From: Cytophagaceae bacterium
GTDB lineage: Bacteria; Bacteroidota; Bacteroidia; Cytophagales; Spirosomataceae
Reading direction: 5' to 3'
Assembly: GCA_947471105.1 (NCBI GenBank)
Contig: CANIYB010000001.1
Coordinates: 1-36,540, forward strand
Length of the DNA: 36,540 bases
The first letter of the stretch is position 1. Each line of letters opens with the position of its first letter. Of this stretch, positions 1 to 22,953 are shown piece after piece. A program made the translations under genes and the position numbers. A model generated the notes under the pieces. It ran no database searches. It was given only the letters and a program-made list of their open reading frames with translations, and was not told the origin of the DNA.

Positions 1-649
1 AACTAGTACGGTAGTCAGTAAAACTAAAATTACCATTGCAAGCTTGTTGAAAAATCGACATCTAACGCTGGGGATTTTAGCTCAGTTTTGTAACGTAGGA
101 GCTCAAGTATCATTATGGGGAAATTTTGTGGATTTGAAAATTGATTTGGCCAGTGAAACAAATTTGTGGATTGTGCAAAAAATTTACCAAACAACTAGTG
201 CGATGTCAGCGACTCAAATAGCTAGTTTTCATGCCTCTTTTGCCTTTGTACTTTTTATGTTTGGTCGATTCATTGGCACTTATTTCATGAGCAAAAATGA
301 TTCAAATAAAATTCTTGGAATCTATTCCATCGGAGCAGTAATTTCCATTATAATTTCAATATTTGGGGGTGGTGTTTATGCATTAGTTGCTTTAATGATG
401 GTTTATTTCTTCCAATCCATTATGTTTCCAACTATTTTTGCTTTAGCATGTAAAGACTTAGGTGAAGGTTCTAAATTAGCTTCGTCATTAATTATTATGT
501 CTATAGTAGGTGGAGCCATTATTCCTCCAATTACCGCGGCATTATTTAAAATAAGCACTCCAGTAGCTCTTATAATTCCCTTATTATGTTTTATATACAT
601 CGTATTTTATTCTTACAATGGATATAAGCTGCCCAAACAGAATGCATAA
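1..649 (+). CDS. fucP: L-fucose:H+ symporter-family MFS permease (5'-truncated by window edge)
   Basis: Frame is open from position 2. FucP-like motifs AQFCNVGAQV, FMFGRFIGT, FQSIMFPTIFALA, MSIVGGAIIP with several hydrophobic helices. Stop TAA at 647-649 overlaps the next ATG (TAATG). Confidence 0.85.
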   Translation, partial: TSTVVSKTKITIASLLKNRHLTLGILAQFCNVGAQVSLWGNFVDLKIDLASETNLWIVQKIYQTTSAMSATQIASFHASFAFVLFMFGRFIGTYFMSKNDSNKILGIYSIGAVISIIISIFGGGVYALVALMMVYFFQSIMFPTIFALACKDLGEGSKLASSLIIMSIVGGAIIPPITAALFKISTPVALIIPLLCFIYIVFYSYNGYKLPKQNA

Positions 650-978
650 TGAAAAGGTATATATTATTATTGGATTTAGTTAACGATGAAAAACTGATAG
701 CAGAATATATTAATTACCATAAAGATATTCCAGCTGCCATTAAAAATAGTATTTTTGAATCTGGAATTACTTCCATGGAGATCTATAGATTTCAAGACCG
801 ATTAGTCATGGAAATTATCGCTGTTGAAGATTTCAGTTTTGAGCGTAAAAATAAATTAGATGTAAATAATTCTCAGGTAGTAGCTTGGGAAAAGCTTATG
901 TCAGCATATCAAAAAAGCATTCCAGGGACTCCTGAAAATGTCAAGTGGGTTTCGGCCGAGAATATATTTAAATTATAA
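649..978 (+). CDS. L-rhamnose/L-fucose mutarotase (RhaM family)
   Basis: 109 aa with RY..LLDL..D..LIAEY..YH, GI..MEIYR and VVAWEKLM..YQ motifs; lies in a fucose cluster. Confidence 0.8.
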   Translation: MKRYILLLDLVNDEKLIAEYINYHKDIPAAIKNSIFESGITSMEIYRFQDRLVMEIIAVEDFSFERKNKLDVNNSQVVAWEKLMSAYQKSIPGTPENVKWVSAENIFKL

Positions 979-981
979 ATA

Positions 982-2646: not shown

Positions 2647-2655
2647 TATTATTGT

Positions 2656-3423
2656 ATGATTTTTTCATTAGAAAATAAAGTTGTTATTATTACTGGAGGT
2701 AGTTCCGGAATCGGAAGAGCTATTTCAATACTATTCGCCCAACAAGGAGCGGAGGTTCATATATTTGATCTACAAAGTCAATTGAGTGAAGACACAATAT
2801 CTGAAGTTCAACAATTCAATAAAAATTCCAAGTTTCATCCGGTTGATATTACAAATGAACAATTAGTGTTGGATGAAATTAATGCTTTAAACGTCATTGA
2901 CATATTGATTAATAATGCTGGAATAGCTCAAATTGGAAATGTAGAAAATACAAGCTCTGGAGACTTTCAAAAAATCTTTGATGTAAATGTGAAAGGGGCT
3001 TTTAATTGCATTAAAGCAGTTATTCCTACTATGGTGAAAAATAAGTCGGGTGTCATATTAAATATGGCTTCAGTAGCATCATCTGTTGGCATTCCAGATC
3101 GATTTGGATATTCAATGACTAAAGGGGCTATAAAATCTATGACGCAATCGATCGCCAAAGATTATATTTCAAAAGGGATTAGATGCAATTGTATCTCTCC
3201 TGCAAGAGTTCATACTCCATTTGTAGACGGATTTATACAGAATAATTATCCGAATAATCAAAAAGAAATGTTCGAAAAGTTATCAGCATCCCAACCCATT
3301 GGAAGAATGGCTAAACCCATAGAGATCGCCCATTTAGCTTTATATTTATGCTCAGACGAAGCATCATTTGCAACAGGTTGCGACTATCCTTTAGATGGTG
3401 GTTTTTTACACTTAAATAATTAA
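2656..3423 (+). CDS. SDR oxidoreductase, probable 2-keto-3-deoxy-L-fuconate 4-dehydrogenase
   Basis: TGGSSGIG, NNAG, YSMTK, RCNCISPARVHTPFV, QPIGRM. Substrate is inferred from the cluster. Confidence 0.8.
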   Translation: MIFSLENKVVIITGGSSGIGRAISILFAQQGAEVHIFDLQSQLSEDTISEVQQFNKNSKFHPVDITNEQLVLDEINALNVIDILINNAGIAQIGNVENTSSGDFQKIFDVNVKGAFNCIKAVIPTMVKNKSGVILNMASVASSVGIPDRFGYSMTKGAIKSMTQSIAKDYISKGIRCNCISPARVHTPFVDGFIQNNYPNNQKEMFEKLSASQPIGRMAKPIEIAHLALYLCSDEASFATGCDYPLDGGFLHLNN

Positions 3424-3428
3424 ATACA

Positions 3429-4103
3429 ATGAAAACAAAACTATTTTTTGCGTTGCTACTGATATCTTCTCTATCTTCATTTAAAGCTGATAATCCCATT
3501 AAAATCTTATTTTTTGGTGACTCCATCACGCAGGCTGGTATCGGAAAAACAGGTTATATAACTAAAATGGCAGAAATGCTTTCTTCTAAAGGTCTATCAG
3601 GGAAATATGAATTGATAGGTGCTGGAATAGGAGGGAACAAAATTTATGATTTATACCTACGACATGAAGAAGATGTGATTGCTAAGAAACCTAATATTGT
3701 TGTAATCTATATTGGAATCAATGACGTTTGGCATAAAACTTCCTCTAGAACAGGAACAGATTATGACAAGTTTGAAAAGTTTTATCATGCTTTAATTCAG
3801 AGGATACAAAAATCTGGTAGTCAAGTAGTTATCTGTACACCCACATTAATTGGCGAGAAGTACGACTCAACTAATGAGAATGATGGGGATTTGAATTATT
3901 TTTCTACGGTCATCAGAAAAATAGCTATTGACGAAAAGTGTAAGTTGATTGATTTACGTAAAGCATTTATCGATTACGAAACAAAATTCAACACGGAAAA
4001 TAAAGCATTAGGTATATTAACATCAGATAGAGTTCACTTAAATGAAGCTGGTAATGTATTCTTAGCTGAAGTTATGTGGGACATTTTAAAAGACATAAAA
4101 TAA
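3429..4103 (+). CDS. SGNH/GDSL hydrolase (esterase) with signal peptide
   Basis: Signal-like N-terminus MKTKLFFALLLISSLSSFKA; blocks FFGDSITQ, GIGGN, IGIND, DRVH. Confidence 0.85.
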   Translation: MKTKLFFALLLISSLSSFKADNPIKILFFGDSITQAGIGKTGYITKMAEMLSSKGLSGKYELIGAGIGGNKIYDLYLRHEEDVIAKKPNIVVIYIGINDVWHKTSSRTGTDYDKFEKFYHALIQRIQKSGSQVVICTPTLIGEKYDSTNENDGDLNYFSTVIRKIAIDEKCKLIDLRKAFIDYETKFNTENKALGILTSDRVHLNEAGNVFLAEVMWDILKDIK

Positions 4104-4108
4104 AAAAG

Positions 4109-4957
4109 ATGAAATTAGTAAGAATAGGAAAGCTAAATAAGGAAAAACCTGCAGTATTAATCAATGATAAATATTTCGATGTTTCAGATTTCATACCTGA
4201 TTATGATGAAGCATTTTTTGAAAATGATGGCATCCGAAATCTAGAAAATATAGTCTCAAATAATAATAATTTAAAAGAAATACTTAATCCAGAAAGAATT
4301 GGATCTTGCGTAGCTAGGCCTTCAAAAATAATATGTGTAGGTTTAAATTATATAGATCATGCAAAGGAAACAGGAGCCGAAATACCGAAAGAGCCTATAT
4401 TATTTTTTAAAAGTACTACTGCATTAAATGGCCCATTTGATGACGTCATTATACCTAAAGGTTCTTCTAAAACAGATTGGGAGGTAGAGTTAGCCATCGT
4501 GATTGGCAAAAAAGCTCAATATGTTACTGAAAAAGATGCCTATGATTATGTTGCGGGATATTGTTTACATAATGATTATTCGGAAAGAGAATTTCAATTA
4601 GAGCGAGGTGGTAATTGGTCAAAAGGAAAGGGATGTGATACATTTGCTCCTTTAGGACCATTTTTAGCAACTAAGGATGAGGTTAAAGATGTCCATGATT
4701 TAAACATGTGGCTTGATGTGAATGGAAAAAGATTTCAAGTTAGTAATACGAATCAATTGATCTTTAATGTACCCCAAGTAGTTTCTTATATTTCCCAATT
4801 TATGACGTTGCTACCAGGTGATGTGATTAGCACAGGTACTCCACATGGTGTTGGACTTGGTTTAAAGCCACCTGTTTTTCTACAGCCAGGCGATTGTGTT
4901 ACATTAGGAATGGATAGTTTAGGAGAACAGAAACAAAATTTAGTGGCTTATTCTTAA
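4109..4957 (+). CDS. Fumarylacetoacetate hydrolase family protein, probable 2,4-diketo-3-deoxy-L-fuconate hydrolase
   Basis: KIICVGLNY, DWEVELA, NDYSER, KGCDTFAPLGP, GDVISTGTP. Start moved to ATG 4109 (MKLVRIG), just after the upstream stop at 4103. Confidence 0.85.
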   Translation: MKLVRIGKLNKEKPAVLINDKYFDVSDFIPDYDEAFFENDGIRNLENIVSNNNNLKEILNPERIGSCVARPSKIICVGLNYIDHAKETGAEIPKEPILFFKSTTALNGPFDDVIIPKGSSKTDWEVELAIVIGKKAQYVTEKDAYDYVAGYCLHNDYSEREFQLERGGNWSKGKGCDTFAPLGPFLATKDEVKDVHDLNMWLDVNGKRFQVSNTNQLIFNVPQVVSYISQFMTLLPGDVISTGTPHGVGLGLKPPVFLQPGDCVTLGMDSLGEQKQNLVAYS

Positions 4958-5787
4958 TGATTGATTCACATCAACATTTTTGGACATATAATGTAAACCG
5001 AGATGTTTGGATAACTGAGGAAATGGGAAGAATTCGCAAGAATTTTTATCCGAATGATTCTGTCGAGTTATTTGCCCAAAATCAAATTGACGGTTGCATA
5101 GCCGTGCAGGCCGATTCATCAGAAGAAGAAACCTTCTTTTTAATATCATTAGCAGAACAATCTGAATTTATAAAAGGTATAGTTGGGTGGGTTGATTTAC
5201 AATCAATTAACATTGAAAGTCAGTTAACTTATTTTTCTCAATTTGAGAAGATTGTTGGTTTCAGACATGTTGTTCAGTCGGAATCAGATCCTAATTTTTT
5301 AGCTAGACCCAATTTTTTAAAAGGAGTTCAGTTATTGGATACATTTGATTTTTCGTACGATTTACTTATTTATCCGAACCAATTAAATGCTGGCATTGAG
5401 TTTTGTAAGAAAAATGCGAATCAAAGGATCGTTTTAGATCATTTAGCAAAACCTCCTATTAAATCTGGTGACATTTCTGAATGGAAAAAGGATATTGAAA
5501 AATTCAAGGAATTAGAAAATGTTTCTGCTAAAATTTCAGGTTTGATTACGGAAGCCGAATGGTATAATTATAATGAGAAAGATATTTTACATATAATTGA
5601 AATAGCTTTAGAGGTATTTGGTTCGGATCGATTAATGTTTGGAACAGATTATCCCGTTGTATTAGTGGCTGATGAGCTGTCTAATTGGGTTAAAACTTTT
5701 AATAAATCCATTTCCCAATTATCATCCAATGAAATAAAAAAAATCACCATCGATAATTGTCTTCAATTTTATAAAATAGACGTATAA
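4957..5787 (+). CDS. Amidohydrolase_2 family sugar lactonase (L-fucono-1,5-lactonase-like)
   Basis: IDSHQHFW, GFRHVVQ, DHLAKP, KISGL, MFGTDYPV; TAATG overlaps on both sides. Confidence 0.85.
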   Translation: MIDSHQHFWTYNVNRDVWITEEMGRIRKNFYPNDSVELFAQNQIDGCIAVQADSSEEETFFLISLAEQSEFIKGIVGWVDLQSINIESQLTYFSQFEKIVGFRHVVQSESDPNFLARPNFLKGVQLLDTFDFSYDLLIYPNQLNAGIEFCKKNANQRIVLDHLAKPPIKSGDISEWKKDIEKFKELENVSAKISGLITEAEWYNYNEKDILHIIEIALEVFGSDRLMFGTDYPVVLVADELSNWVKTFNKSISQLSSNEIKKITIDNCLQFYKIDV

Positions 5788-6569
5788 TGAATTTAGGATT
5801 AAAAGAAAAAGTGATTATTGTCACTGGAGGGGCAAAAGGTATTGGCGAAGGAATAAGCGAAAGTTTAGCTCTTGAAAGTGCCATGGTAGCAATTGTTGGT
5901 CGAAACGAAAATGACAATCTTACATGTATTGAAAAAATTCAAGCCATCGGTGGACAAGCATTTTCTTTTGTTGCTGAATTAAGCGATCCAAATCAATGTA
6001 AAAAAGTGATCGATGAAATATTCAATAAGTTTGGGAGAATTGATGGATTAGTAAATAATGCCGGAATAAATGATGGTGTAGGATTAGCAAATGGTACTTA
6101 TGAGAAATTTGTTCAATCATTGCACTCGAATTTAATTCATTACTATTTATTAGCACAGGCTTGTTTACCACATTTAATTAAGACAAAAGGCTCCATTGTT
6201 AACATTGGTTCAAAAGTAGCAGAAACTGGACAAGGTGGAACTTCAGCATATGCAGCTTCTAATGGGGGGAGAAATGCTTTAACACGAGAATGGGCGGTAG
6301 AATTGTTGCCCTATGGCATCCGAGTTAATGCGGTCATTGTGGCAGAATGTTATACTCCCATGTATGATAAATGGATAAAAACGTTACCAAATCCTTCAGA
6401 AACCTTACGTGAAATAGAAAATAGAATTCCTTTAGGTAAGCGAATGACGACTAAAGAAGAGTTGGGCGCCATGGTTACTTTTTTATTATCAAGTAAGTCA
6501 AGCCATACCACTGGCCAATTAATTCATGTGGATGGGGGATATGTACATTTAGATCGATCATTAATCTAA
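5787..6569 (+). CDS. SDR oxidoreductase, probable L-fucose 1-dehydrogenase
   Basis: TGGAKGIG, NNAGINDGVGL, TGQGGTSAYAAS, ALTREWA, HTTGQ..HVDGGYVHLDR; adjacent to the lactonase. Confidence 0.8.
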   Translation: MNLGLKEKVIIVTGGAKGIGEGISESLALESAMVAIVGRNENDNLTCIEKIQAIGGQAFSFVAELSDPNQCKKVIDEIFNKFGRIDGLVNNAGINDGVGLANGTYEKFVQSLHSNLIHYYLLAQACLPHLIKTKGSIVNIGSKVAETGQGGTSAYAASNGGRNALTREWAVELLPYGIRVNAVIVAECYTPMYDKWIKTLPNPSETLREIENRIPLGKRMTTKEELGAMVTFLLSSKSSHTTGQLIHVDGGYVHLDRSLI

Positions 6570-6573
6570 TAAT

Positions 6574-7659
6574 ATGGATTATAAAAATATTGAAAGTCCT
6601 GGGTTAATTGTGTTTCCTGAAGTTGTAAGGTCAAATATAAAGATGGTTATTGATATGGTTGGCGGAAATGTCGCTCGATTAAGACCCCATATTAAGACTC
6701 ATAAGACCCAAGAGGGGAATGACTTACTATTAGAGGCTGGGATATATAAATTTAAATGTGCCACGATTGCGGAAGCGGAACTACTCGCTATTTCAAAGGC
6801 AAAAGATATATTGCTATCCATTCAACCTACCGGAACCACTCTATCAAGATTTATCGAATTGATTCTTAGTTATCCGAAAAGTCAATTCTCATGTTTGGTG
6901 GATGATTATTTAGCTGCAGAGAAAATAAATGAATTTGCCATAAACAATAAAATAGTAATCAACATTTTTATTGACTTAAATGTAGGAATGAATCGGACTG
7001 GAATCGTTCCAAAAGATGCAATCCATTTAATTGAAAAAATAGCAAATCATTTATTTAATTTGGAAATTAAAGGGCTTCATGCCTATGATGGGCATATACG
7101 TGATTTTGAAATGGAAGCTCGTATTAATCATGTCCAACAAGATTTTATAGATTTTTATGAATTAATTGGCAAAATAGACCCCCATAATAAGTACGAATTA
7201 GTAGTCGGTGGAACACCTAGCTTTTTAGTACATCGTACGAACGATCGTTTTGTTTGTAGTCCTGGAACTTTTGTATTTTTTGATATAGGTTATTCTAAAT
7301 TATTTCCTGAAAATACTTTTAAAATGGCTGTTCAAATAATTTCAAGAGTCATTTCTAAACCCACAAGTTCAACCATTTGCATTGATTTAGGACATAAATC
7401 GGTGGCAGCAGAAAATCCCATTGAAAATAGAGTTCGATTTATAGATTTTCCAAATTGGATCCTTAAAAGTCAAAGTGAAGAACATGGAATTATTGAAGTT
7501 AATGATCATTCCAACATAGAAATTGGCCAAATCATACGAATGTACCCATATCATATTTGTCCGACAGTGGCACTGCACCAAAACTTACAAGTCATTGAAC
7601 ATGACCAAAAGATAGGAGAGTGGGTAGTAAAAGCGCGTAATCGTAAAATAAATATTTAA
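6574..7659 (+). CDS. D-threonine aldolase / DSD1-family PLP-dependent enzyme (fold type III)
   Basis: RPHIKTHK (PLP lysine), RTG, HAYDGH, GGTP, SEEHG, HICPTVALH (metal-binding HxC). Confidence 0.85.
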   Translation: MDYKNIESPGLIVFPEVVRSNIKMVIDMVGGNVARLRPHIKTHKTQEGNDLLLEAGIYKFKCATIAEAELLAISKAKDILLSIQPTGTTLSRFIELILSYPKSQFSCLVDDYLAAEKINEFAINNKIVINIFIDLNVGMNRTGIVPKDAIHLIEKIANHLFNLEIKGLHAYDGHIRDFEMEARINHVQQDFIDFYELIGKIDPHNKYELVVGGTPSFLVHRTNDRFVCSPGTFVFFDIGYSKLFPENTFKMAVQIISRVISKPTSSTICIDLGHKSVAAENPIENRVRFIDFPNWILKSQSEEHGIIEVNDHSNIEIGQIIRMYPYHICPTVALHQNLQVIEHDQKIGEWVVKARNRKINI

Positions 7660-7660
7660 T

Positions 7661-8728
7661 ATGCTACTCTTTGACGCTCATTTAGATTTAAGCATGAATG
7701 CTTTGGAATGGAATAGAGATTTACGCTCATCCATTACTGAGATAAATTCCAGAGAGGAAGGCATGACTGATAAATTAGATCGAGGAAAAGCAACGGTATG
7801 CTTAGAAGAGTTACGAAAAGGTAATATTGGGATTGTGGTAGCCACGCAAATAGCGCGGTATGTGGAAAAAACATCTCAATTACCGGGTTGGAATTCTCCA
7901 GAACAGGCTTGGGCGCAAACGCAAGGTCAATTAGCCTATTATAAAGCTTTGGAATCATTCGGAGAACTATCTCCTATACGAAATGCAAATGAACTAAATA
8001 CTCATTTACAGTATTGGAATGGTTCTACCGATGATAAAAAAACCATCGGTTATATATTAAGTTTAGAGGGGGCTGATTCTATCATATCCGTTGAATACTT
8101 AGATATAGCCTATAATTATGGATTAAGAGCTTTAGGACCAGCTCATTATGGACCTGGTAGATACGCACAAGGCACCAATGCAACCGGCGGTTTAGGACCT
8201 AACGGAAAAGATTTGTTAGAAAAAATGGAATCTTTGGGGATCATCTTAGATGCAACCCATCTGTGTGATGATAGTTTTTGGGAAGCTATGGAAATTTTCA
8301 ATGGATCTATTTGGGCTAGTCATCAAAATAGTAGATCACTCGTAAATCATAATCGCCAGTTTACGGATGAACAATTTAAAGAAATTATTCGACGTGGAGC
8401 AGTAATCGGTTTACCCTTAGACACTTGGATGATGGTCCCTAATTGGATTAGGGGAGAATCGGACCCAATAACTATGAAAGTCGACTTAAACGTCATGGTA
8501 GACCATTTAGTCCATATTTGCAGCCTTGCAGGCAATACTAATCATGTAGGAATTGGTACTGATTTAGATGGCGGATTCGGAACTGAACAATCCCCGATGG
8601 ATATTAAAACTATCGCTGACCTACAAAAAATTCCAGATTTATTATTGAAAAGAGGTTTTTCGAATGATGATATTACAAAAATTTGTCATCAAAATTGGAT
8701 TGATTTTTTAGTTAAACATTGGAGTTAA
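7661..8728 (+). CDS. Membrane-dipeptidase family (peptidase M19) amidohydrolase, cytoplasmic
   Basis: DAHLD, SLEGAD, LDATH, SHQN, GIGTDLDGG; no signal peptide. Confidence 0.85.
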   Translation: MLLFDAHLDLSMNALEWNRDLRSSITEINSREEGMTDKLDRGKATVCLEELRKGNIGIVVATQIARYVEKTSQLPGWNSPEQAWAQTQGQLAYYKALESFGELSPIRNANELNTHLQYWNGSTDDKKTIGYILSLEGADSIISVEYLDIAYNYGLRALGPAHYGPGRYAQGTNATGGLGPNGKDLLEKMESLGIILDATHLCDDSFWEAMEIFNGSIWASHQNSRSLVNHNRQFTDEQFKEIIRRGAVIGLPLDTWMMVPNWIRGESDPITMKVDLNVMVDHLVHICSLAGNTNHVGIGTDLDGGFGTEQSPMDIKTIADLQKIPDLLLKRGFSNDDITKICHQNWIDFLVKHWS

Positions 8729-8731
8729 CCA

Positions 8732-9487
8732 TTATACAGATCCTGGGGGTGGGCTGTATGAGGTCCAACCTCCATCCACGATTAAGGTTTGACCCGTAAT
8801 TTGCCTTGACTTTTCAGAGAGCATAAATAATATTGCATTTGAGATATCAGATACATCAGCAATTGAACCCATCGGAGTTATTTTAGTCCATTGATCTTCA
8901 AAGTCATCAATTAAAGATGTTCTTTCTGTAAGGGTAGCACCTGGTGAAATAGCATTGATGCGAATTCCTAATGGGGATAATTCCACAACTAAATTCCTTA
9001 CCAACTGGATTAAAGCTCCTTTTGTCATGCCATAAGCCACTAAATCAGGATGAGCTTGATGACCAGTAACTGAAGAGGTAACCACAATGGATCCTTTTGA
9101 TTTACTTTCTTTTAATAATTTAGCAATGAATTGTATTAAGAAAAAAGTACCTGAAACATTGACTTTTAACAATAAATCCATGGATTCCCTCGGGTATTCA
9201 AGGAAATTGCCAAAGGTTGTAATTCCACTATTGCAAATACAACCATATAAAGTTCCCGGCGTACTACTGATCGTTTTCGCTAAATCACTTAAAAATAATT
9301 CACTACTTGAATCACCTAAGATCCCCAAATGGTTTGTTAACGAATGTTTTTCTAATTGCTGTGAAGCAGATTTGAAAACGGAAGGATCAATTTCGTTCCA
9401 TATGACAAAATATCCTTCTTTGCATAATTGTATAACTACTTCTAAACCAATTCCTTGACCAGCACCTGTGACAATTACTTTCTTCAT
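8732..9487 (-). CDS. SDR family oxidoreductase
   Basis: TGAGQGIG, YGMTK, IRINAISPG, ITGQTLIVDGG. Confidence 0.85.
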   Translation of the reverse strand: MKKVIVTGAGQGIGLEVVIQLCKEGYFVIWNEIDPSVFKSASQQLEKHSLTNHLGILGDSSSELFLSDLAKTISSTPGTLYGCICNSGITTFGNFLEYPRESMDLLLKVNVSGTFFLIQFIAKLLKESKSKGSIVVTSSVTGHQAHPDLVAYGMTKGALIQLVRNLVVELSPLGIRINAISPGATLTERTSLIDDFEDQWTKITPMGSIADVSDISNAILFMLSEKSRQITGQTLIVDGGWTSYSPPPGSV

Positions 9488-9488
9488 T

Positions 9489-11204
9489 TTAATGTGAATC
9501 TCTTGTTACTTTTGAACCTGAACCACCCTTTAAAAAATCAAAATCGGCTCCCACATGTGCTTGCTCGACGCGGTCAATAAACAATCCCACATAACCTCTT
9601 ATTTGCTTAACAGGAACAAACGGATTTGCTACTTTTCTTTTGGCTAATTCTTCATCACTAACTTCCCAATGAATGCTTCGATTGTTTAGGTCTAATTGAA
9701 TAAAATCTCCATTTTCAACCCAATTCAATGGTCCACCAGCTGCAGATTCAGGACTTACGTGTAAAATAACAGTTCCATACCCTGTGCCACTCATTCGACC
9801 ATCCGAAATTCTGACCATGTCTTTTACTCCTTTTTCTAATAATTTTTTAGGAATACCCATATTACCCACTTCGGCCATACCCGGATAACCTTTGGGACCT
9901 ACATTTTTCAAAACCATCACTGAGTTTTCGTCAATATCTAAATCAGGCAAGTCAATTCTAGCATGATAATCTTCTATATTTTCAAATACAACCGCTTTTC
10001 CTCTATGTTTAAACAACGATAAAGAAGCTGCTGAAGGTTTAACAACCGCTCCATTCGGAGCTAAATTTCCTCTAACTACTGCTATTCCTGAATCTAATTT
10101 AAAAGGCTCTTCGAAAGTTGAAATAATATTACTGTCGTAAATAGGTGTATTTTCAATGTTTTCACCAACTGTTTTGCCATTCACTGTTATAGCATCCGTA
10201 TTCAGAAACTTTTTCATTTGATTCATTAATGCCGGTAAGCCCCCAGCATAATATAAATCTTCCATGAAATGTTCCCCTGAGGGTTGTATATTAGCTAATA
10301 AAGGGATTTGTCTAGAAAATTTATCAAAATCATTTAAATCTAATTCTACTCCAATTCTACCTGCAATTGCTAGTAAATGAATTACGAAATTAGTTGATCC
10401 ACCAGTAGCCGCATTAACCCGAATGGCATTTTCAAAAGCTTGTCGCGTTAAAACTTTTGAAATTTTCTGATCCTCATTAACCATTTCCACGATGCGCCTA
10501 CCCGAATTTTGGGCTAGGACTTTTCTTCGCACATCGGCAGCTGGAATAGCTGCATTTTGTGGTAAACTTAATCCTAAAGCTTCCACCATAGTAGCCATAG
10601 TGGAAGCCGTACCCATTACGGCACAATGTCCAGGAGTTCTTGCCATACAAGCCTCAGCTTCGACAAATTCCTTTTGAGTTAATTCACCTAATTTATACGC
10701 TTCAGCAAATCTCCATACATCAGAGGTGCCAATATCTTTACCTTTAAATTTTCCTTTCATCATAGGCCCCCCTGAAATAACTAAAGTAGGCAAATCAACA
10801 CTGCAAGCACCCATCACTAAAGAAGGAGTGGTTTTATCACATCCACACATTAGCACAACCCCATCGATCGGATTAGCTCGAATGGATTCTTCAACATCCA
10901 TACTGGCCAAATTACGATATAACATGGCAGTTGGCTTAATTAACGTTTCACCCAAAGACATAACGGGAAACTCTACAGGAAATCCTCCAGCTTCAATAAC
11001 ACCTTTTTTAACAAATTCTGCGAGTTCTCTAAAATGAGCATTACATGGTGTTAATTCAGACCATGTATTACAAATACCAATGACGGGTTTGCCTTGAAAA
11101 TAATCATCAGGAATACCCTGATTTTTCATCCAGGCTCTATAAATAAAACCATCTTTACCAGTTTTACCGAACCATTGTTGCGAGCGTAAATTTTCTTTAT
11201 TCAT
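9489..11204 (-). CDS. IlvD/Edd-family [2Fe-2S] sugar-acid dehydratase (L-arabinonate/D-xylonate dehydratase type)
   Basis: NTWSELTPCNAH, GCDKTTP, GHCAVMGTAS, SDGRMSGT, and C-terminal RDSH typical of pentonate dehydratases. ATG 11204 preferred to TTG 11210. Confidence 0.88.
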   Translation of the reverse strand: MNKENLRSQQWFGKTGKDGFIYRAWMKNQGIPDDYFQGKPVIGICNTWSELTPCNAHFRELAEFVKKGVIEAGGFPVEFPVMSLGETLIKPTAMLYRNLASMDVEESIRANPIDGVVLMCGCDKTTPSLVMGACSVDLPTLVISGGPMMKGKFKGKDIGTSDVWRFAEAYKLGELTQKEFVEAEACMARTPGHCAVMGTASTMATMVEALGLSLPQNAAIPAADVRRKVLAQNSGRRIVEMVNEDQKISKVLTRQAFENAIRVNAATGGSTNFVIHLLAIAGRIGVELDLNDFDKFSRQIPLLANIQPSGEHFMEDLYYAGGLPALMNQMKKFLNTDAITVNGKTVGENIENTPIYDSNIISTFEEPFKLDSGIAVVRGNLAPNGAVVKPSAASLSLFKHRGKAVVFENIEDYHARIDLPDLDIDENSVMVLKNVGPKGYPGMAEVGNMGIPKKLLEKGVKDMVRISDGRMSGTGYGTVILHVSPESAAGGPLNWVENGDFIQLDLNNRSIHWEVSDEELAKRKVANPFVPVKQIRGYVGLFIDRVEQAHVGADFDFLKGGSGSKVTRDSH

Positions 11205-11850
11205 TTTCAAAGTCTAAGGTTTTTTTTAAAACAAAGCTATTATCCGGACCTAATGAATAATAACAAACTCTAACACCATTTTCTAATTCTGAATATTGGT
11301 CATTATTAAATTGAAAGGATCGAACTATATTAGATTTAACAAAATACAAAGAATCCTTTCCTGCATAACCAAATTCTTGTCTACCCTTTAAATTAGGAAA
11401 ATTTATTAAATTAAAAGAATTTTTATTGTATTCATACCCATATATTTGAAATTTATGAGCGTTATCATCTCCATAAATCCAGAATTCAGGTTGTTGGTTA
11501 TTATTTAAATCTGAGCTTAATAGATTTTTTATCTTAAAATTTTTTATTTTTTTTTCAAAGACCAACTCATGACTTTTGAATATTTGAAAATTGACAAAAT
11601 CATTCTTTATCTCAGCCTTAGCCTCAAAATCTTCTACTTGAGTTAAATAAACAGGGGATACGTGTTCAATTGTATCCAATGGGAGTTTCATATTTGAAAT
11701 AGAATCCATTGCTGTATTAACTATTTTTTCATCATTGAAATCATATGTTACTTTATCATTATCCGTTAGATCTTGATTAATGATGAAATAAATCAGAAAT
11801 ATAAGAAGGCAAATAATTCCAATAAATAAGAAAGATTTAATGTGTCTCAT
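11197..11850 (-). CDS. Membrane-anchored hypothetical protein with PliI-like (lysozyme inhibitor) C-terminal domain
   Basis: N-terminal TM helix; DLNNNQQPEFWIY, GYAGKDSLYFVKSNIVRSF and GVRVCYYSL resemble Bacteroidota PliI-like proteins (from memory). Overlaps both neighbours. Confidence 0.55.
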   Translation of the reverse strand: MRHIKSFLFIGIICLLIFLIYFIINQDLTDNDKVTYDFNDEKIVNTAMDSISNMKLPLDTIEHVSPVYLTQVEDFEAKAEIKNDFVNFQIFKSHELVFEKKIKNFKIKNLLSSDLNNNQQPEFWIYGDDNAHKFQIYGYEYNKNSFNLINFPNLKGRQEFGYAGKDSLYFVKSNIVRSFQFNNDQYSELENGVRVCYYSLGPDNSFVLKKTLDFENE

Positions 11851-12988: not shown

Positions 12989-13780
12989 TTATCTATTGGG
13001 TCTGTAAATTTGAAATCCTTTTATTTTTTTATTTTTCAATAAGTATTGATCGATGGTCACATCAGAAATGCATACCACTTTTTTTTCCTGAGAAGCATGT
13101 AAGATATACTTTTTATTATTTTTAAAATAAACAAATCCCACATGCTTAAAATCCAAATCATTACGTGAAGATACAAAGGCTATGACATCCCCATTTTGAA
13201 TTAAGTTATTTGTATCAGAATCGTTCATTGAATCAAAGTAATATATAGGCCGATTGCTAATTGAATTTTCTATTTTCTTCAACTTATCTTTATCTATATA
13301 TTTACTATTTACATGTTCAGATAAATAATCTATTTTTTTAAAAACGGATTTTGAGTTGAACGGATTATTAATAGGAGTAAGTAATTTGAGTTTAACTAGC
13401 TTTTCTAGGCCAGAAGTTAAATAATGATTTCTGTTTTCATAGCTGATGGAATCATTGTATCGGATCTTAATAAGGTTATCGCTAAACTGGATAGGATTTC
13501 CCTTAGAATGATACAAGGCTAATACGTTTTCTACATAAGTAACACAATCAAAATCGCCAAATGAGAAATATACTTTTTCAGGGTTTGATGCAGATAATCG
13601 ATTAGCTAAATAAGGGGCTCCGATAAAATATTGACCAATCAGATTGGGAGATTTTAATGAAAGGCTTTTTTCTATTGCCAACTTCAACTTATTGGGTATT
13701 ACCTTAAATGATTGCGCTTCCAGAAAATATCCGGGAACCCAAACCACAATAAACATCATGATAAAGCCTAGTTTTTTCAT
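12989..13780 (-). CDS. DUF1460 / NlpC-P60-like N-acetylmuramoyl-L-alanine amidase, exported
   Basis: Signal-like N-terminus; GAPY, FDCVTYVENVLAL (catalytic Cys), RNHY, GDVIAF, HVG, HAS. Confidence 0.8.
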   Translation of the reverse strand: MKKLGFIMMFIVVWVPGYFLEAQSFKVIPNKLKLAIEKSLSLKSPNLIGQYFIGAPYLANRLSASNPEKVYFSFGDFDCVTYVENVLALYHSKGNPIQFSDNLIKIRYNDSISYENRNHYLTSGLEKLVKLKLLTPINNPFNSKSVFKKIDYLSEHVNSKYIDKDKLKKIENSISNRPIYYFDSMNDSDTNNLIQNGDVIAFVSSRNDLDFKHVGFVYFKNNKKYILHASQEKKVVCISDVTIDQYLLKNKKIKGFQIYRPNR

Positions 13781-15489
13781 GAAATTGCTTTAAATATTAA
13801 TGCACTATTGGGCGGAATCTCTACAAATATTTTATCTGAAATTTCGTCGTTTTTATATTCAATGGTAGGAGGGGTGAACATATTTTCAATCTTCCATTTT
13901 AAATTATATTTATTCATTAATTCAAACGCTAAATCCGGAATGACAATTTCTAATTGGAAATTCTCCGAAGTGTGAAAATTAATTACAAACAACAATTGTT
14001 CATCATTTGTATATCGTAAATAAGCGTACACATATTTACTTGGATAGTTTTCTCTCTGTACATATTGTAAATCAAAAAATTGACCCATTTGTACTGCATT
14101 TGAATTTTTGACAAAATTAAATAGTTGTTGATAAAAATGATCTATTTCAATCTCCTGACTTGTCAATAAATCATGATTGAATTTTCCATGATTAAACCAT
14201 CTTTGATGCGAATCCACCCGCCAGAAATCAAACATAGTCGTACGATCATCTGCATCATTAAAGCCTTCGATTTCATTTGCTTTTTCGCCAAATTCTTGAC
14301 CAAAATAGATCATGAATGGTCCTCCATGCAATGTTGAAGTAATCAACATGGCTGGAATTGATGACCAAATATTATGGGCTGCAAAACCTGAAGAATTAAT
14401 TCTAGTTTCATCATGATTTTCTAAAAATCTTAACATTTTATTAGAAAATTCACCGGATTCCTGCTGCCAAACTTGAGTAATTAAACTAGTATGCGCCTCA
14501 CTTTTTTGTTCCATTAAACTCCTTAATGAATCGTACAAACCCACCTTATCATAAAGGTAATCAAAGTGTCCCTTGTAGATATAATCAGCATATAAACTTG
14601 GCTGATAGATTTCAGCAATAAAAATTAGATCAGGATTAATCTCTTTTATTTTAGGAATAACAAAAGCCCAAAATTCCACAGGAACCATTTCAGCCATATC
14701 GCAACGAAAACCATCTACACCCAAATTTGTCCAATAGGTTAAAACTTCCAACATTTTATACCAAGTGTCTGGTATGGGATCAAAGTGAATATGGCCATTA
14801 TTATGATAATCGATCCCGTAATTTAATTTAACCGTTTCGAACCAATCGTGAATAGTGGGTTGTGAAGAAAATACATTATTTCCACTTGCTTTAGCTGGTA
14901 TTTCCACATATGCTTGAATATTGGATTCAATTTCACCATTATTAGGTACAATAAATTGTGTCCCAGGCAAATAATAAAAATTGTTTTGAGGTGAAAAATC
15001 GACATCTTTTCGATCATTAAAACCGAAATCATTTACCCCATCAGGTTTTTTGTCAGATTGATAATTTCTGGCTAAATGGTTAGGAACAAAATCCAGTATT
15101 ATTTTTAATTTATTTTCATGAATTCGATCAACCATTAAATTGAACTCATCTAAGCGATTTTCAGGATTATTGGCCAAAAAAGGATTTACATCATAATAAT
15201 CTTTGATGGCAAAAGGAGACCCACAACTTCCTTTGACAATAGAAGGGTGATCTAACGTACACCCATAGTCTGAATAATCTTCTTTTGTGGCGTGTTCGAT
15301 AATTCCAGTGGTATACAAATGGGTAAAACCCTTATCATGTAAAATAATTAATGCCTTGTTTGAAACATCAATAAATTTAGTTGTACCATTTGTGGTTGAA
15401 TGACCATTCTTTTGAGGATTTGTTACCGTATTTCCCCAAAGATGAAACATCATCTGATAAATGATCAATTTATTTGATTCGTTTGACAT
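13777..15489 (-). CDS. GH13 alpha-amylase family glycoside hydrolase, cytoplasmic
   Basis: GSPFAIKDYY, LDFVPNH, DGFRCDMAE (nucleophile D), FIAEIY (acid/base E), FLENHDE. Confidence 0.9.
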   Translation of the reverse strand: MSNESNKLIIYQMMFHLWGNTVTNPQKNGHSTTNGTTKFIDVSNKALIILHDKGFTHLYTTGIIEHATKEDYSDYGCTLDHPSIVKGSCGSPFAIKDYYDVNPFLANNPENRLDEFNLMVDRIHENKLKIILDFVPNHLARNYQSDKKPDGVNDFGFNDRKDVDFSPQNNFYYLPGTQFIVPNNGEIESNIQAYVEIPAKASGNNVFSSQPTIHDWFETVKLNYGIDYHNNGHIHFDPIPDTWYKMLEVLTYWTNLGVDGFRCDMAEMVPVEFWAFVIPKIKEINPDLIFIAEIYQPSLYADYIYKGHFDYLYDKVGLYDSLRSLMEQKSEAHTSLITQVWQQESGEFSNKMLRFLENHDETRINSSGFAAHNIWSSIPAMLITSTLHGGPFMIYFGQEFGEKANEIEGFNDADDRTTMFDFWRVDSHQRWFNHGKFNHDLLTSQEIEIDHFYQQLFNFVKNSNAVQMGQFFDLQYVQRENYPSKYVYAYLRYTNDEQLLFVINFHTSENFQLEIVIPDLAFELMNKYNLKWKIENMFTPPTIEYKNDEISDKIFVEIPPNSALIFKAIS

Positions 15490-15594: not shown

Positions 15595-16593
15595 TTATTT
15601 AATCAAGTCGATATCCGGGGTTGATTGATCTACTAAAGAAACTCCACCTCGGTCTTTTCTAGCAATTCTTGAATAAAGACCTATTTCTTGGCTAAACAGA
15701 AAAGTGAAAAATAACTTCACAAAAGAGGTATGGTAATGTAAATTATTATAAAATTCTGGAGCTATATTTTTCAACTTTGGCAAATTGTTCCAAGGAATTG
15801 ATGGCATATCATGATGTTCATTATGGTAACCTACATTCATATTAATTGAATTTAAGCCTCCATAATAACTAAATGTTTCTTGTTTTTTATCTAAAACTAA
15901 AAAGTGTTCTTGTATCCACCTAGCACCCAGCGGATGAAGTCCCACAGAAAATAGAAAACTAAACCCTAGATAAGCTAAAGCTGACCAACCCCAAAAATAA
16001 ACTATGGCAGCATCGAAAATAAGTTGGACCACAATGTTCATAATCACATATCGGTCTATAATAGCTAATTCAATGCAACGATAAGTACGAATTCCCTGAA
16101 AAAATGGAAATAATAGTAACCATATCATTTTACCAATAAAAAAATTATTAATCAATTTAGCTTCCCAATAATCTGGCAAATCAGCATCGAGCTCATGGAC
16201 ACCTTGAAAAGCATGATGTTTTAAATGAAAGTTTTTGAAAGAAATAGCCGTTGGCGCCAAAGAAGGGAGATTAGCTATGATCCCCGCAAAAACATTCCAA
16301 GATTTTTTTCTATAAATTAAATTATGAGCGGATTCATGAATACAAACAAATAAGGTATGTACAGGGAAAGCTCCAATAAACCAAGCCGTACCTACAATGA
16401 TCCACCAAGAATAATCTTTGATAAAAAAGGCAATTGTAATTTGCAAAAACACACAAGCTAAAATCCAATACATGGTATTAGGATTCTTGCCAATTAATTT
16501 TTTTACTTCAGGATGTTTTTTAATTATTTCACGAGTTCTACTACGATGAGGTTCAGCCTCATCAACCCAAATAAAATCATTCCTTTCCTCCAT
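15595..16593 (-). CDS. Sphingolipid delta-4 desaturase/C4-hydroxylase-like membrane desaturase (DES1/DEGS family)
   Basis: N-terminal Lipid_DES-like DFIWVDEAEPHRSRTREIIKKHPEVKKL; His boxes HESAH, HLKHH, HNEHH; GLHP..A..IQEH; ETFSYYG.LN...NVGYHNEHHD.P.IPW..LP. Confidence 0.85.
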   Translation of the reverse strand: MEERNDFIWVDEAEPHRSRTREIIKKHPEVKKLIGKNPNTMYWILACVFLQITIAFFIKDYSWWIIVGTAWFIGAFPVHTLFVCIHESAHNLIYRKKSWNVFAGIIANLPSLAPTAISFKNFHLKHHAFQGVHELDADLPDYWEAKLINNFFIGKMIWLLLFPFFQGIRTYRCIELAIIDRYVIMNIVVQLIFDAAIVYFWGWSALAYLGFSFLFSVGLHPLGARWIQEHFLVLDKKQETFSYYGGLNSINMNVGYHNEHHDMPSIPWNNLPKLKNIAPEFYNNLHYHTSFVKLFFTFLFSQEIGLYSRIARKDRGGVSLVDQSTPDIDLIK

Positions 16594-16741: not shown

Positions 16742-18628
16742 ATGGGAAAAATTATTGGAATTGATTTAGGTACCACCAACTCATGTGTGGCGGTTATGGA
16801 AGGTAGCGAGGCTGTTGTAATTGCGAATTCTGAAGGACGAAGAACAACACCTTCAATCGTTGCATTTTTGGAAAATGGTGAACGCAAAGTAGGGGATCCT
16901 GCTAAGCGACAAGCTATTACAAATCCACAAAATACGATTTCATCAGTAAAAAGATTTATGGGTAAAAAATACTCCGAAGTAAGTTCAGAGTTAAAAACTA
17001 TTTCATATTCAGTTGAACAAGGAAATAACGATACGCCAAGAGTAAGAATCGGCGATCGTCTTTATACACCTCAAGAAATATCTGCTCAGATTTTGACTAA
17101 AATGAAGCAGACAGCTGAAGATTATTTAGGTCAAACTGTAACAGAAGCCGTTATTACGGTTCCGGCTTATTTTAATGATGCGGAACGTCAAGCCACTAAA
17201 GAAGCAGGACAGATTGCGGGACTTGAAGTAAAACGAATTATAAATGAGCCTACAGCTGCTGCATTAGCATATGGAGTGGATAAAAAAGGACAGGATATGA
17301 AAATAGCTGTCTTTGATTTAGGTGGAGGTACTTTTGACGTATCTATTTTAGAATTAGGAGATGGAGTATTCGAGGTTAAATCGACAGACGGAGATACTCA
17401 TTTAGGTGGAGATGATTTTGATCAAGTCATTATCAATTGGCTTGCAGAAGAATTTATATCAGATGAAAATATAGATCTACGTAAAGATCCGATGGCACTT
17501 CAACGCTTAAAAGAAGCAGCTGAAAAGGCAAAAATCGAATTAAGTTCTAGCGCAAATACGGAAATTAATTTACCTTATATTATGCCTGTAGACGGCATTC
17601 CCAAACATTTAGTTCGTTCATTAACGCGCGCTAAATTTGAACAACTGGCCGACAGTTTAATTCGCCGTACATTAGAACCATGTAAACGTGCCATGAAAAA
17701 CGCTTCTTATTCGAACGCGGATATAGATGAAGTGATTTTGGTAGGTGGGTCAACACGTATTCCAAGAATCCAAGAAGAAGTTGAAAAATTCTTTGGCAAA
17801 AAACCATCTAAGGGAGTTAATCCAGATGAGGTAGTAGCTATTGGAGCAGCTATTCAAGGAGGTGTTTTAACCGGTGAGGTGAAAGATGTATTATTATTAG
17901 ATGTAACACCTTTATCCTTAGGTATTGAAACGATGGGTGGTGTATTCACTAAATTGATCGAATCAAACACTACGATCCCGACAAAAAAATCTGAGACTTT
18001 TTCTACAGCAGCAGATAATCAACCTTCAGTTGAGCTAAATGTATTACAAGGAGAAAGACCAATGGCTAAAGATAACCGTTCCTTAGGCCGTTTCCATTTA
18101 GATGGTTTGCCACCAGCTGCTAGAGGAATTCCTCAAATCGAGGTAACCTTTGATATTGACGCAAATGGAATATTACAAGTTTCAGCAAAAGAAAAAGGTA
18201 CTGGTAAAGAGCAAAAAATTAGAATTGAAGCTTCTAGTGGTTTGACAGATGAAGAAATTGAGAAAATGAGAAATGAGGCAAAAGCAAATGAAGCGACAGA
18301 CAAGATCGAAAAAGATCGCGTTGAGAAAGTCAACCAAGCAGATGCTTTAATTTTTCAGTCTGAAAAACAATTGAAAGAATATGGCGAAAAATTGTCAGAA
18401 GGCAATAAATCAGCCATAGAAGGAGCTTTATCTGAATTGAAAATAGCTCATGCATCTCAAGACTTAACGTCAATCGATTCAGGAATTGAAAAGTTAAATA
18501 CGGCTTGGACTGCGGCTTCGCAAGAAATGTACGCTAATACTCAAGAGGGTGGTGATCAACCATCTCAAAATACAGAAACTCCATCGGATGATTCAGCTGA
18601 AGATGTTGCTTTTGAAGAAGTAAAATAA
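16742..18628 (+). CDS. dnaK: Molecular chaperone DnaK (Hsp70)
   Basis: [42 protein letters not shown]; C-terminal DVAFEEVK. Confidence 0.99.
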
Positions 18629-18646: not shown

Positions 18647-18680
18647 AAAAGGTTCCTCTAAAAAAGGAACCTTTTTTTTT
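18647..18680. terminator. Bidirectional intrinsic terminator between dnaK and the DUF3050 gene
   Basis: AAAAGGTTCCT-ctaaaaa-AGGAACCTTTT hairpin with a long T run on + and a shorter one on -, between convergent genes. Confidence 0.85.
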
Positions 18681-19443
18681 ACATTTTTGCATTGACAATA
18701 CCATCCCAAAGTTTAATTCTGGCCTCTAACGAATTGATCGCTGCCTGTGTAGCGCGTGCCCAGGCTTTTGGGTCATCTTGACACAATTGAGATACCATGG
18801 ATGTTGCTAATGCAGAATGATGACCTCCATCCACTTCAATATGCCTTTCCAAATAATAGGTCAATGTTTTTATCTTATCAGGAGATTGTACTCTTAATTG
18901 ATTTAATATGAGTTGAAACATTTCCGGAATCAAATCTTCTCGGCCAAAAGTAAAAATAGCGGAAATTTCTTCAATCTTCCCGTTTAAAATACTTGAAAAA
19001 GTAAAGGTTAAGAAATCCTTAATGCTTTGTGGTAAATCAATTGAAGGAAGGGCAATCAGAAACTCCTCAACTGATTTAAACTGTTTAAAAGTTGACAAAG
19101 CAGGAGGGACCATAATGGCTAGTTCATCCATAGCTCTCAAATATAAATCAAAATGACTGATATAGCCACCGTTAGGATCAATATCAGATTCTTCTCCTAA
19201 AACAATTTCATTAATCAAATACCTAGTTTCACCCGATCCCTTTGGAAACCATAATGAATCTACAGAAGTTAACTCAACTTGTAACTTTTTGACTAAAGAC
19301 ATAAAATCCCAAACTGCAAATATATGATGCTGCATGAAAACAGATAAATGTTCATGAGAAATGATATAAGAATTAATTGGATGATTTCTTAAAACCTTTT
19401 TATAAGGTTCAATGCTTTTTTGTAATTCAATTAAATGCGACAT
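18679..19443 (-). CDS. DUF3050 protein (heme-oxygenase-like diiron oxidase superfamily)
   Basis: FMQHHIFAVWDFMSL, INEIVLGEESD, SHFDLYL, FGREDLIP, YLERHIEVDGGHH. Confidence 0.85.
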   Translation of the reverse strand: MSHLIELQKSIEPYKKVLRNHPINSYIISHEHLSVFMQHHIFAVWDFMSLVKKLQVELTSVDSLWFPKGSGETRYLINEIVLGEESDIDPNGGYISHFDLYLRAMDELAIMVPPALSTFKQFKSVEEFLIALPSIDLPQSIKDFLTFTFSSILNGKIEEISAIFTFGREDLIPEMFQLILNQLRVQSPDKIKTLTYYLERHIEVDGGHHSALATSMVSQLCQDDPKAWARATQAAINSLEARIKLWDGIVNAKM

Positions 19444-21691: not shown

Positions 21692-22034
21692 ATGATAATT
21701 TGGATAGAACAGCTTTGAAAGCATCAGGATGGTTCATGGCTAAATCTGCGAGTACTTTGCGATTTAATGTCATACCTGATTTGTTATACTTACCCATGAA
21801 AGCTGAATAGGATAATCCTTCTTGCCTAGCTGCAGCATTAATACGCTGTATCCAAAGTCCACGAAAATCTCTTTTCTTAACTTTACGATCGCGATATGCA
21901 TATTGCAAACCTTTTTCTACTTTGTTTTTAGCGACAGTCCAAACATTTTTCCCTCTTCCGAAAAATCCCTTCGCTAATTTTAAAATCTTTTTCCTCCTAG
22001 CTCTTGAAGCTACATGATTGACACTACGTGGCAT
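21690..22034 (-). CDS. rplT: 50S ribosomal protein L20
   Basis: [47 protein letters not shown]. Confidence 0.99.
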
Positions 22035-22051
22035 AACTAAATTTGTTTTTT

Positions 22052-22094
22052 GAATTCAGGCGGCTCATTTCGAACACTTTTTTTGCCTTAATTC
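22052..22094 (-). ncRNA. Candidate structured cis-regulatory RNA in the rpmI-rplT spacer (putative L20 leader)
   Basis: On the - strand GAAUUAAGGC pairs with GCCUGAAUUC (one A.G mismatch), enclosing an A-rich loop and a small GUUC-gaaau-GAGC hairpin; ends 17 nt before the rplT AUG. Confidence 0.4.
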
Positions 22095-22119
22095 TGGTTG
22101 AACAATAACTAATAACTGA

Positions 22120-22317
22120 TTATGAAAGTCCTAATAATAAACTTACACGACCCATATCAGAAGGGGAAACTAACGTAGCGTGAACTAAATTACGCTTTTG
22201 CTTAGTTGTTTTTTTTGTTAGGATGTGGCTATGAAAAGCATGCTTACGCTTTATTTTACCAGTTCCTGTAACTTTGAAACGCTTTTTTGCTCCAGAGTTG
22301 GTTTTAATTTTTGGCAT
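22120..22317 (-). CDS. rpmI: 50S ribosomal protein L35
   Basis: [36 protein letters not shown]; start set at ATG 22317 (65 aa) rather than 22380. Confidence 0.98.
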
Positions 22318-22349
22318 TCTATTAAGTATTAAATGTAAAAATTGGAATG

Positions 22350-22357
22350 CAAAAGTA
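22350..22357 (-). promoter_or_regulatory. -7 element upstream of rpmI
   Basis: TACTTTTG matches TAnnTTTG in the infC-rpmI spacer. Confidence 0.5.
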
Positions 22358-22392
22358 AAAAAATTACCTTGAAATTCCACTATATAAATAAA

Positions 22393-22953
22393 TTATTTCT
22401 TTTGAGCTTTGGGTGTAAATATGATGCTCATTCGCTTTCCCTCTAATTTTGGCATATCATCAGGTTTGCCCACTTCTTCAAGTCCCTTTGCAAAATTCAG
22501 TAATAGCATTTCGCCTCTTTCTTTGAATACAATTGTTCTACCTACGAAATGCACATATGCCTTAACCTTAGCACCTTCTTTAAGAAAATTAACAGCATGC
22601 TTTAATTTGAAATTAAAATCATGTTCATCTGTATTGGGACCAAACCGAATTTCCTTGATGACTGTTTTGGTTGCATTTGCCTTAATTTCCTTTTGCTTTT
22701 TCTTTTGATCATACTTGAATTTAGCATAATCAATCACTTTGCAAACGGGTGGAACAGCATTGGGGGAGATTTCAACTAAATCTAAACTCTGTGCTTCTGC
22801 TAGTTCAATAGCTTTAGAGAATGGATAAACACCTTGTTCAATATTTTCTCCTACTAATCTAACTTCTTCTACTCCACGAATTAATTGATTAATTCGATAA
22901 GGTTCTTCTTCTCTTCTATTTCCTCGGTAATTGTTATTGGGGCGTAAAGCCAT
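22393..22953 (-). CDS. infC: Translation initiation factor IF-3
   Basis: [44 protein letters not shown]; thrS-infC-rpmI-rplT synteny. Confidence 0.98.

Follow-up and report, generated by a model that had tools for sequence, protein, structure and literature searches.

A DES1-family membrane desaturase in a Cytophagales bacterium, its partner genes and the missing serine palmitoyltransferase

The window analysed here is a stretch of 36,540 nucleotides. On its reverse strand, at positions 15595..16593, lies a reading frame for a predicted di-iron membrane desaturase of 332 amino acids, P0001, that belongs to the DES1/DEGS family as defined by sequence: it has the Lipid_DES and FA_desaturase domains and the histidine boxes. 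The reading of its function that we favour, with somewhat more confidence than doubt, is that P0001 is a delta4(E)-desaturase for a dihydroceramide with a C1 hydroxyl, which is then capped with a phospho group, the backbone being made without serine palmitoyltransferase (SPT).

Homology to DEGS is by itself routine, many relatives of P0001 being already labelled 'sphingolipid delta-4 desaturase' in databases by JGI; what is new is the module of partner genes and the missing SPT. In the literature searched, mostly open-access, we found no paper on an assigned bacterial sphingoid delta4-desaturase and no description of a desaturase-PAP2_C-PhyH-SDR module. The literature covered includes PMC11334938, PMC2444003, PMC3463246, PMC9324278 and bioRxiv 2021.04.26.441525.

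Sequence and predicted structure of the desaturase

The reading frame is intact: it is open and starts with ATG. In Pfam, Lipid_DES (PF08557) matches residues 4-39, an N-terminal motif at 16477..16584 on the reverse strand, with 62.8 bits for a cut-off of 23, and FA_desaturase matches with 77.8 bits for a cut-off of 29.7; the first match is not a chance event, because none of 14 control genomes contains Lipid_DES. The three histidine boxes, HESAH (H86, H90; 16324..16338), HLKHH (H123, H126, H127; 16213..16227) and HNEHH (H257, H260, H261; 15811..15825), all on the reverse strand, are exactly where the original prediction had placed them. They fit the patterns HX3H, HX2HH and HX2HH, and the first is invariant in alignments A1 and A2; across 123 sequences all eight histidines are invariant, as are H16 and R19 of the N-terminal motif among 123 homologues. 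The third box sits within a block, ETFSYYG...NVGYHNEHHD, whose ETFSYYG occupies 15859-15879 of the reverse strand. This block and the N-terminal segment, which coincides with Lipid_DES, were also part of that prediction, as was membership of the DES1 family in preference to generic acyl-lipid or carotenoid desaturases; all of this stands, and the two Pfam models proposed as a check are both above their cut-offs. A carotenoid ketolase or a generic acyl desaturase was considered and rejected, the best NCBIfam matches being far under their cut-offs (for instance CrtW, 25.8 for a cut-off of 350).

P0001 is single-copy in its host genome, in which four other reading frames fit the histidine-box pattern. 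An AlphaFold2 model built from 123 sequences has a pLDDT of 94.7; its top Foldseek matches are 8xks_K and 8xqw_M, which are chains of chloroplast motor complexes, together with AlkB and SCD1, and the fold of the model is that of a membrane di-iron desaturase. Searched by sequence, the PDB gave no match for P0001 and no DEGS structure, and the ESM Atlas gave FA_desaturase/Lipid_DES clusters only.

Position in the DES family

A homologue search with P0001 retrieved 5362 proteins at E 0.001, from 6132 candidates. Over nearly its full length it is 35-41% identical to the eukaryotic DES1/DEGS1 and DES2/DEGS2 proteins (41% to Mya DES1, 38% to Hortaea DES and 35% to Mustela DES2), with which it shares the Pfam pair, the three histidine boxes with all catalytic histidines, and the QEH/EH and ETYSYYG blocks. 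It differs from them in that it falls in a separate tree group (support 97-99), that its residues 220-230 (15904..15936, reverse strand) read HPLGARWIQEH where eukaryotic DES have HPxAGHFxxEH, and that its host lacks SPT.

Two trees were computed, one with FastTree on the 181 rows left after a filter on length and motifs had removed 27 of the 150 representatives, and one with IQ-TREE (LG+C20, quick) on 35 rows. Both split the DES family in two, with a support of 99 in the first and an SH-aLRT of 97 in the second. The rows from animals, fungi and choanoflagellates, with HPxAGHF, are on one side, where a group of marine Bacteroidota (Ekhidna, Reichenbachiella, Marinoscillum, Balneolaceae) stands among these eukaryotic DES. 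On the other side P0001 is joined by further Bacteroidota, by Bacteriovorax and Binatia, and by one protein of a heterolobosean protist, P0166, which has several relatives; this bacterial-type group is marked by HPLGARWIQEH, which is present in some form in all 113 group genes taken from genome loci, and exactly in 97.

Neither nesting within the eukaryotic DES1/DES2 clade nor the HPxAGHF motif was found for P0001, in either tree. On this sampling P0001 is not nested among animal and fungal DES, the trees being unrooted and giving no direction of transfer. The term 'eukaryote-like', used in the original prediction, goes too far: P0001 is of the DES1 family but belongs to a large, mainly bacterial sister group, and it is the second Bacteroidota group that falls among eukaryotic DES. 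Bacteria, as the trees show, hold two distinct DES groups.

The marine, eukaryote-type proteins share with P0001 the Pfam pair and the phylum, and are ~37-44% identical to it, but they lie among eukaryotic rows in both trees. One of them, in genome G536 (L376:4804-19563), is clustered with an SPT-like gene (606 bits), a context that the group of P0001 lacks. The G536 cluster also holds a GNAT acyltransferase, an epimerase-type reductase, an inositol-phosphate synthase, a nucleotidyltransferase, a CDP-alcohol transferase and a PLD gene; a cluster of the same kind in G354 (L377) has a broken desaturase copy. The distribution of the desaturase is patchy: it is found in 14 of 260 genomes of the class, 25 of 160 of the order, and 27 of 201 of family f18, where it is mostly of the eukaryote-type group.

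These comparisons also bear on an alternative that we regard as unlikely, namely that P0001 is mainly a C4-hydroxylase of the DES2/Sur2 kind, acting on the same class of substrates to give phytoceramide-type bases. Eukaryotic DES proteins include, by their names, bifunctional desaturase/C4-monooxygenases, and the group of P0001 includes Bacteriovorax, which makes 4-hydroxy bases; however, P0001 is slightly nearer to DES1- than to DES2-labelled references (41 versus 35%, a weak difference), and its closest characterised relatives are said to have 4(E)-ene bases. Sequence comparison did not separate desaturase from C4-hydroxylase activity for P0001.

Host genome and neighbourhood

The host assembly (G000) comes from freshwater, is 2.4 Mb long and 82% complete. 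It is Aquirufa-like: its closest named loci, with 74-94% identity, belong to Aquirufa, Arcicella and Flectobacillus. Each of the 80 loci kept, which come from genomes of Aquirufa, Arcicella, Flectobacillus and Saprospiraceae, has an orthologue of P0001, with 70-98% identity, and the Flectobacillus major orthologue, P0013, is 77% identical to P0001. The 1-kb bins of the gene have a GC content of ~31-33%, like its flanks. To judge from composition and from conservation across genera, the gene is native to its host. A recent transfer from a eukaryote is rejected on the same two observations and on the separate tree group.

No local lipid operon surrounds the desaturase in the window. It is flanked by dnaK (16742..18628, forward strand), which is divergent from it, and by an alpha-amylase-family gene (13777..15489, reverse strand) downstream. 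The linkage with dnaK is kept in 49 of the 80 close-relative loci, and we draw no functional link from it. A scan for promoters and terminators gave 7 matches for 7.8 expected, which is chance level.

Elsewhere in the window, positions 18679-19443 encode a DUF3050 protein (283 bits), near the desaturase in 32 of the 80 close-relative loci. Positions 1-11210 hold a sugar-acid catabolism cluster that, judged from its translations, resembles an L-fucose/L-rhamnose oxidative pathway: an MFS transporter, a mutarotase-like protein, a UxaA-like dehydratase, SDRs, an FAH-family hydrolase, an amidohydrolase and an IlvD-like dehydratase. The gap between rplT and infC, at 22034-22393, probably holds rpmI, shorter than the ORF length cut-off used.

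Absence of SPT

We searched for SPT in one fixed draw of 120 genomes of the family, each at least 95% complete, at E 1e-110, a threshold at which very divergent SPTs would be missed. The desaturase is present in 41 of them and SPT in 20, and no genome has both: an SPT above cut-off was found in none of the 41 desaturase-bearing genomes, and in none of 24 genomes of the same genus. In the host assembly, 82% complete, the best match to NF047600 has 289 bits for a cut-off of 640. Five named relatives (A. antheringensis, A. rosea, Arcicella aquatica LMG 21963, Flectobacillus longus and F. rivi) have no SPT down to E 1e-20, and hold only SulA-like, BioF-like and, in three of the five, Kbl-like enzymes, the BioF and Kbl labels being taken from their neighbours. 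With none in the 24 same-genus genomes and none in the five named ones, an SPT missed through incomplete assembly is unlikely.

Outside the family, the exclusion between desaturase and SPT is not absolute: among 31 desaturase-bearing genomes, five have an SPT over cut-off, four have an SPT-like enzyme (470-606 bits), and 22 have none. A divergent SPT-like enzyme, with ~470 bits on NF047600, is also seen in family f6 (L335, L336, L095), two of the genomes having the desaturase too.

It is likely that an undescribed route leads to ceramide-type lipids in the bacteria with the desaturase and without SPT. The Spt-bCerS-CerR pathway of Caulobacter and Bacteroides would yield the same dihydroceramide, and the host has a distant GNAT protein of the bCerS family, 25-30% identical to SPT-adjacent acyltransferases; Spt, however, was found neither in the host nor in any of the 41 desaturase-bearing family genomes. 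The word 'desaturase' has no occurrence in the accessible text of the bacterial ceramide pathway paper PMC11087976.

A desaturase could also be retained without SPT if the module remodelled sphingoid bases or ceramides scavenged from algae or other bacteria; together with action on a non-sphingoid lipid, we consider this quite improbable. The small genome (2.4 Mb assembled) and freshwater habitat of the host would suit scavenging, and HPLGARW in place of the eukaryotic HPxAGHF could reflect another head group. However, the Lipid_DES motif and the conservation of the TM region point to sphingoid substrates for P0001, and F. major makes abundant sphingolipid in culture, and a unique glycosphingolipid, according to the accessible part of PMC5155239.

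Partner genes

The gene for PAP2_C, a sphingomyelin-synthase-like protein, was searched in the 120 family genomes with a three-sequence profile. It is present in 40 of the 41 desaturase-bearing genomes, which are kin from 14 genera and do not represent 40 independent events, in none of the 79 others, and in none of the 20 with SPT. The single desaturase-bearing genome without it is G072, in which the desaturase adjoins PhyH.

The desaturase adjoins PAP2_C in four genomes of three families (G069, G098, G592, G650), accompanied by PhyH in all four and by an SDR in three. All four genes are clustered in G069 and G098; in G592 and G650, which belong to other families and lack SPT, PAP2_C and PhyH flank the desaturase, and the SDR comes next in G592. 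Further genomes keep PAP2_C-PhyH-SDR or PAP2_C-PhyH together. A module gene adjoins the desaturase in 5 of the 49 loci examined, and none is nearby in the other 44. Within the stretch examined of 80 metagenome PhyH loci, PAP2_C occurs in 26, SDR in 22 and comA in 24. An Omp85-family gene (L439:11287-12387) lies inside the G069 cluster, and reading frames of similar size are found there in L440 and L446.

All four genes are present in the host, scattered over its contigs: the desaturase is on C1, PAP2_C at C112:2456-3094, the SDR at C94:5130-5903 and the PhyH dioxygenase at C7:1856-2710. Like the SMS/CPE synthases of PF14360, its PAP2_C protein is over the Pfam cut-off (37.5 bits for 27) and has the FSGHT and H.HY..D motifs, whose role in those enzymes is catalytic. 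Unlike them this putative head-group transferase is short, 212 amino acids, with no match to a PDB structure by sequence; it also has a weak PDCT match, and PF14360 covers enzymes with other acceptors too. The PhyH model has a pLDDT of 73.6, and its fold search matches are of the generic PhyH family only. PhyH is found in all five genomes examined with desaturase and without SPT, in two of three with both, and in one with neither, and is absent from one with SPT only: there is no clean rule by which it would be a strict substitute for SPT, and it is more widespread than the desaturase.

The sulfonolipid pathway

The only enzyme of the long-chain-base type found in the host is encoded at C182:2712-3950 (L091), and matches SulA (PDB 7U7H, E 2e-181) and CFAT (28EH). 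The original prediction proposed a search of the genome for sphingolipid or sulfonolipid pathways; the second is represented by this SulA with its diagnostic lysine, while canonical SPT was found neither in the host nor in the 41 family genomes. The Lys281 position is a lysine in all 60 SulA sequences matched. According to the accessible text of PMC9304779, this residue sets SulA apart from SPT, and there, as in the accessible part of PMC13692747, the CFAT/SulA enzymes tested strongly prefer cysteate over serine. With Lys281 kept, we saw no sequence sign of a SulA-like enzyme switched to serine. SulA is present in all 120 family genomes.

Neither a CapA/CBS-type cysteate synthase nor the archaeal type (TIGR03844) was found in the host or its close relatives; the CapA/CBS type occurs in 51 of the 120 family genomes, the reference being the gene beside capB in L246, compared by eye with C. 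gleum CYS-1 (supplement table of PMC11525784). ComA is present in the host (C7:5752-6513, L400) and in 119 of the 120 family genomes, and ComB in four of four named relatives; we infer that ComA and ComB could stand in for the known synthases as cysteate suppliers. The near-universal SulA and ComA, against CapA in 51 of 120, suggest that the cysteate for sulfonolipids is made by way of phosphosulfolactate. Among the matches listed, no literature joins 'phosphosulfolactate synthase' and 'sulfonolipid'.

With the CapA-CapB/SulA-CapC/KCR pathway, the host thus shares SulA and one relative of the GNAT acyltransferase, but differs by having ComA in place of either type of cysteate synthase. The accessible parts of PMC11211663 and PMC10191378 describe no desaturase step in this pathway. 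The GNAT protein (C46:2238-3428, L401), the sole bCerS-like one in the host and a candidate N-acyltransferase, is 24-30% identical to both SPT-adjacent and SulA-adjacent acyltransferases.

P0001 could then desaturate the sulfonolipid directly, turning N-acyl-capnine into its 4(E)-ene, with PAP2_C acting on something else, an explanation we find somewhat unlikely. It would require no missing enzyme, SulA being the only long-chain-base-forming enzyme found, with a possible cysteate supply by ComA/ComB; an SPT-like gene is absent from 22 of the 31 desaturase-bearing genomes outside the family; and Bacteroidota have sulfonolipids with a mass 2 Da below that of sulfobacin D, according to the part of PMC9305409 that is accessible. 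However, neither bacterial DES group has the genera of that source, Algoriphagus, Cyclobacterium and Echinicola, among its named matches (best 120), a hint that another enzyme is at work in them; the known cysteate synthase types were not found in the host or its close relatives; and SulA, being universal in the family, is uninformative by its presence. The tracking of PAP2_C (40 of 41 against 0 of 79) would also be left unexplained, since capnine has no C1 hydroxyl.

Proposed function

Enzymes of the SMS family take a phospho head group off a glycerophospholipid and place it on the C1 hydroxyl of ceramide, a hydroxyl that sulfonolipids do not have. With so tight a PAP2_C partner, a dihydroceramide is therefore the favoured substrate. 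By analogy with its family, P0001 would act on C4-C5 of a long-chain base that is N-acylated, by means of a putative di-iron centre with histidine ligands, O2 and a small ferredoxin-type donor. The lipid whose base receives the 4(E) double bond would be of the dihydroceramide type, with a free C1 hydroxyl that is suggested by the PAP2_C partner; to this hydroxyl the sphingomyelin-synthase-like partner would then attach a phospho head group. The lack of SPT suggests a backbone from another route, the most plausible start being the SulA/cysteate (capnine) pathway, kept in all these genomes.

The product would resemble the amino-phosphosphingolipids of Flectobacillus major. Lipids of this species with a 4(E)-hexadecasphingenine base, in a 4(E)-ene, 2'-hydroxy, phosphoethanolamine structure, were reportedly described by Batrakov in 1999/2000, and a desaturase, together with a hydroxylase and a head-group transferase, could account for such a structure. 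A search of the mostly open-access literature for lipid structures of F. major and Arcicella gave no paper. F. major is also listed as an amino-sphingophospholipid producer in the accessible review table of PMC10626005.

Of the products first proposed, 4-ene sulfonolipids agree with the presence of the SulA long-chain-base pathway, but the co-occurrence of PAP2_C tilts the balance to a ceramide with a C1 hydroxyl. True ceramides, favoured by PAP2_C, would need an unknown backbone route, because no canonical SPT was found in the 41 desaturase-bearing genomes. No enzyme making a long-chain base with a C1 hydroxyl was found, which counts against the dihydroceramide reading.

One rather doubtful proposal to fill this gap, drawn by analogy with sulfonate and phosphonate dioxygenases, is that SPT-less Cytophagales make true ceramide from sulfonolipid by oxidative desulfonation. 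The PhyH-type 2-oxoglutarate dioxygenase would hydroxylate the sulfonate-bearing C1, upon which sulfite leaves; the SDR would reduce the resulting aldehyde to the C1 alcohol; P0001 would add the 4(E) double bond and PAP2_C the head group. Other options for the backbone are the use of serine by the SulA of this lineage in vivo, a further enzyme, or scavenging. Alternatively, PhyH could hydroxylate the acyl chain at 2' and the SDR could act as a 3-keto reductase, in which case the backbone gap stays.

Implications

P0001 is a candidate sphingoid delta4-desaturase in a culturable lineage, with three partner genes named. Genome surveys take SPT as the sign of bacterial sphingolipid producers. Should the lineages without SPT (Aquirufa, Arcicella, Flectobacillus, Spirosoma and Hymenobacter) indeed make ceramide-type lipids, then bacteria common in fresh water and soil escape such surveys, and there is an unknown backbone route. 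If the desulfonation proposal were true, ceramide would have a pathway independent of SPT, in which P0001 is the desaturase. The two bacterial DES groups, finally, bear on the origin of the eukaryotic enzyme.
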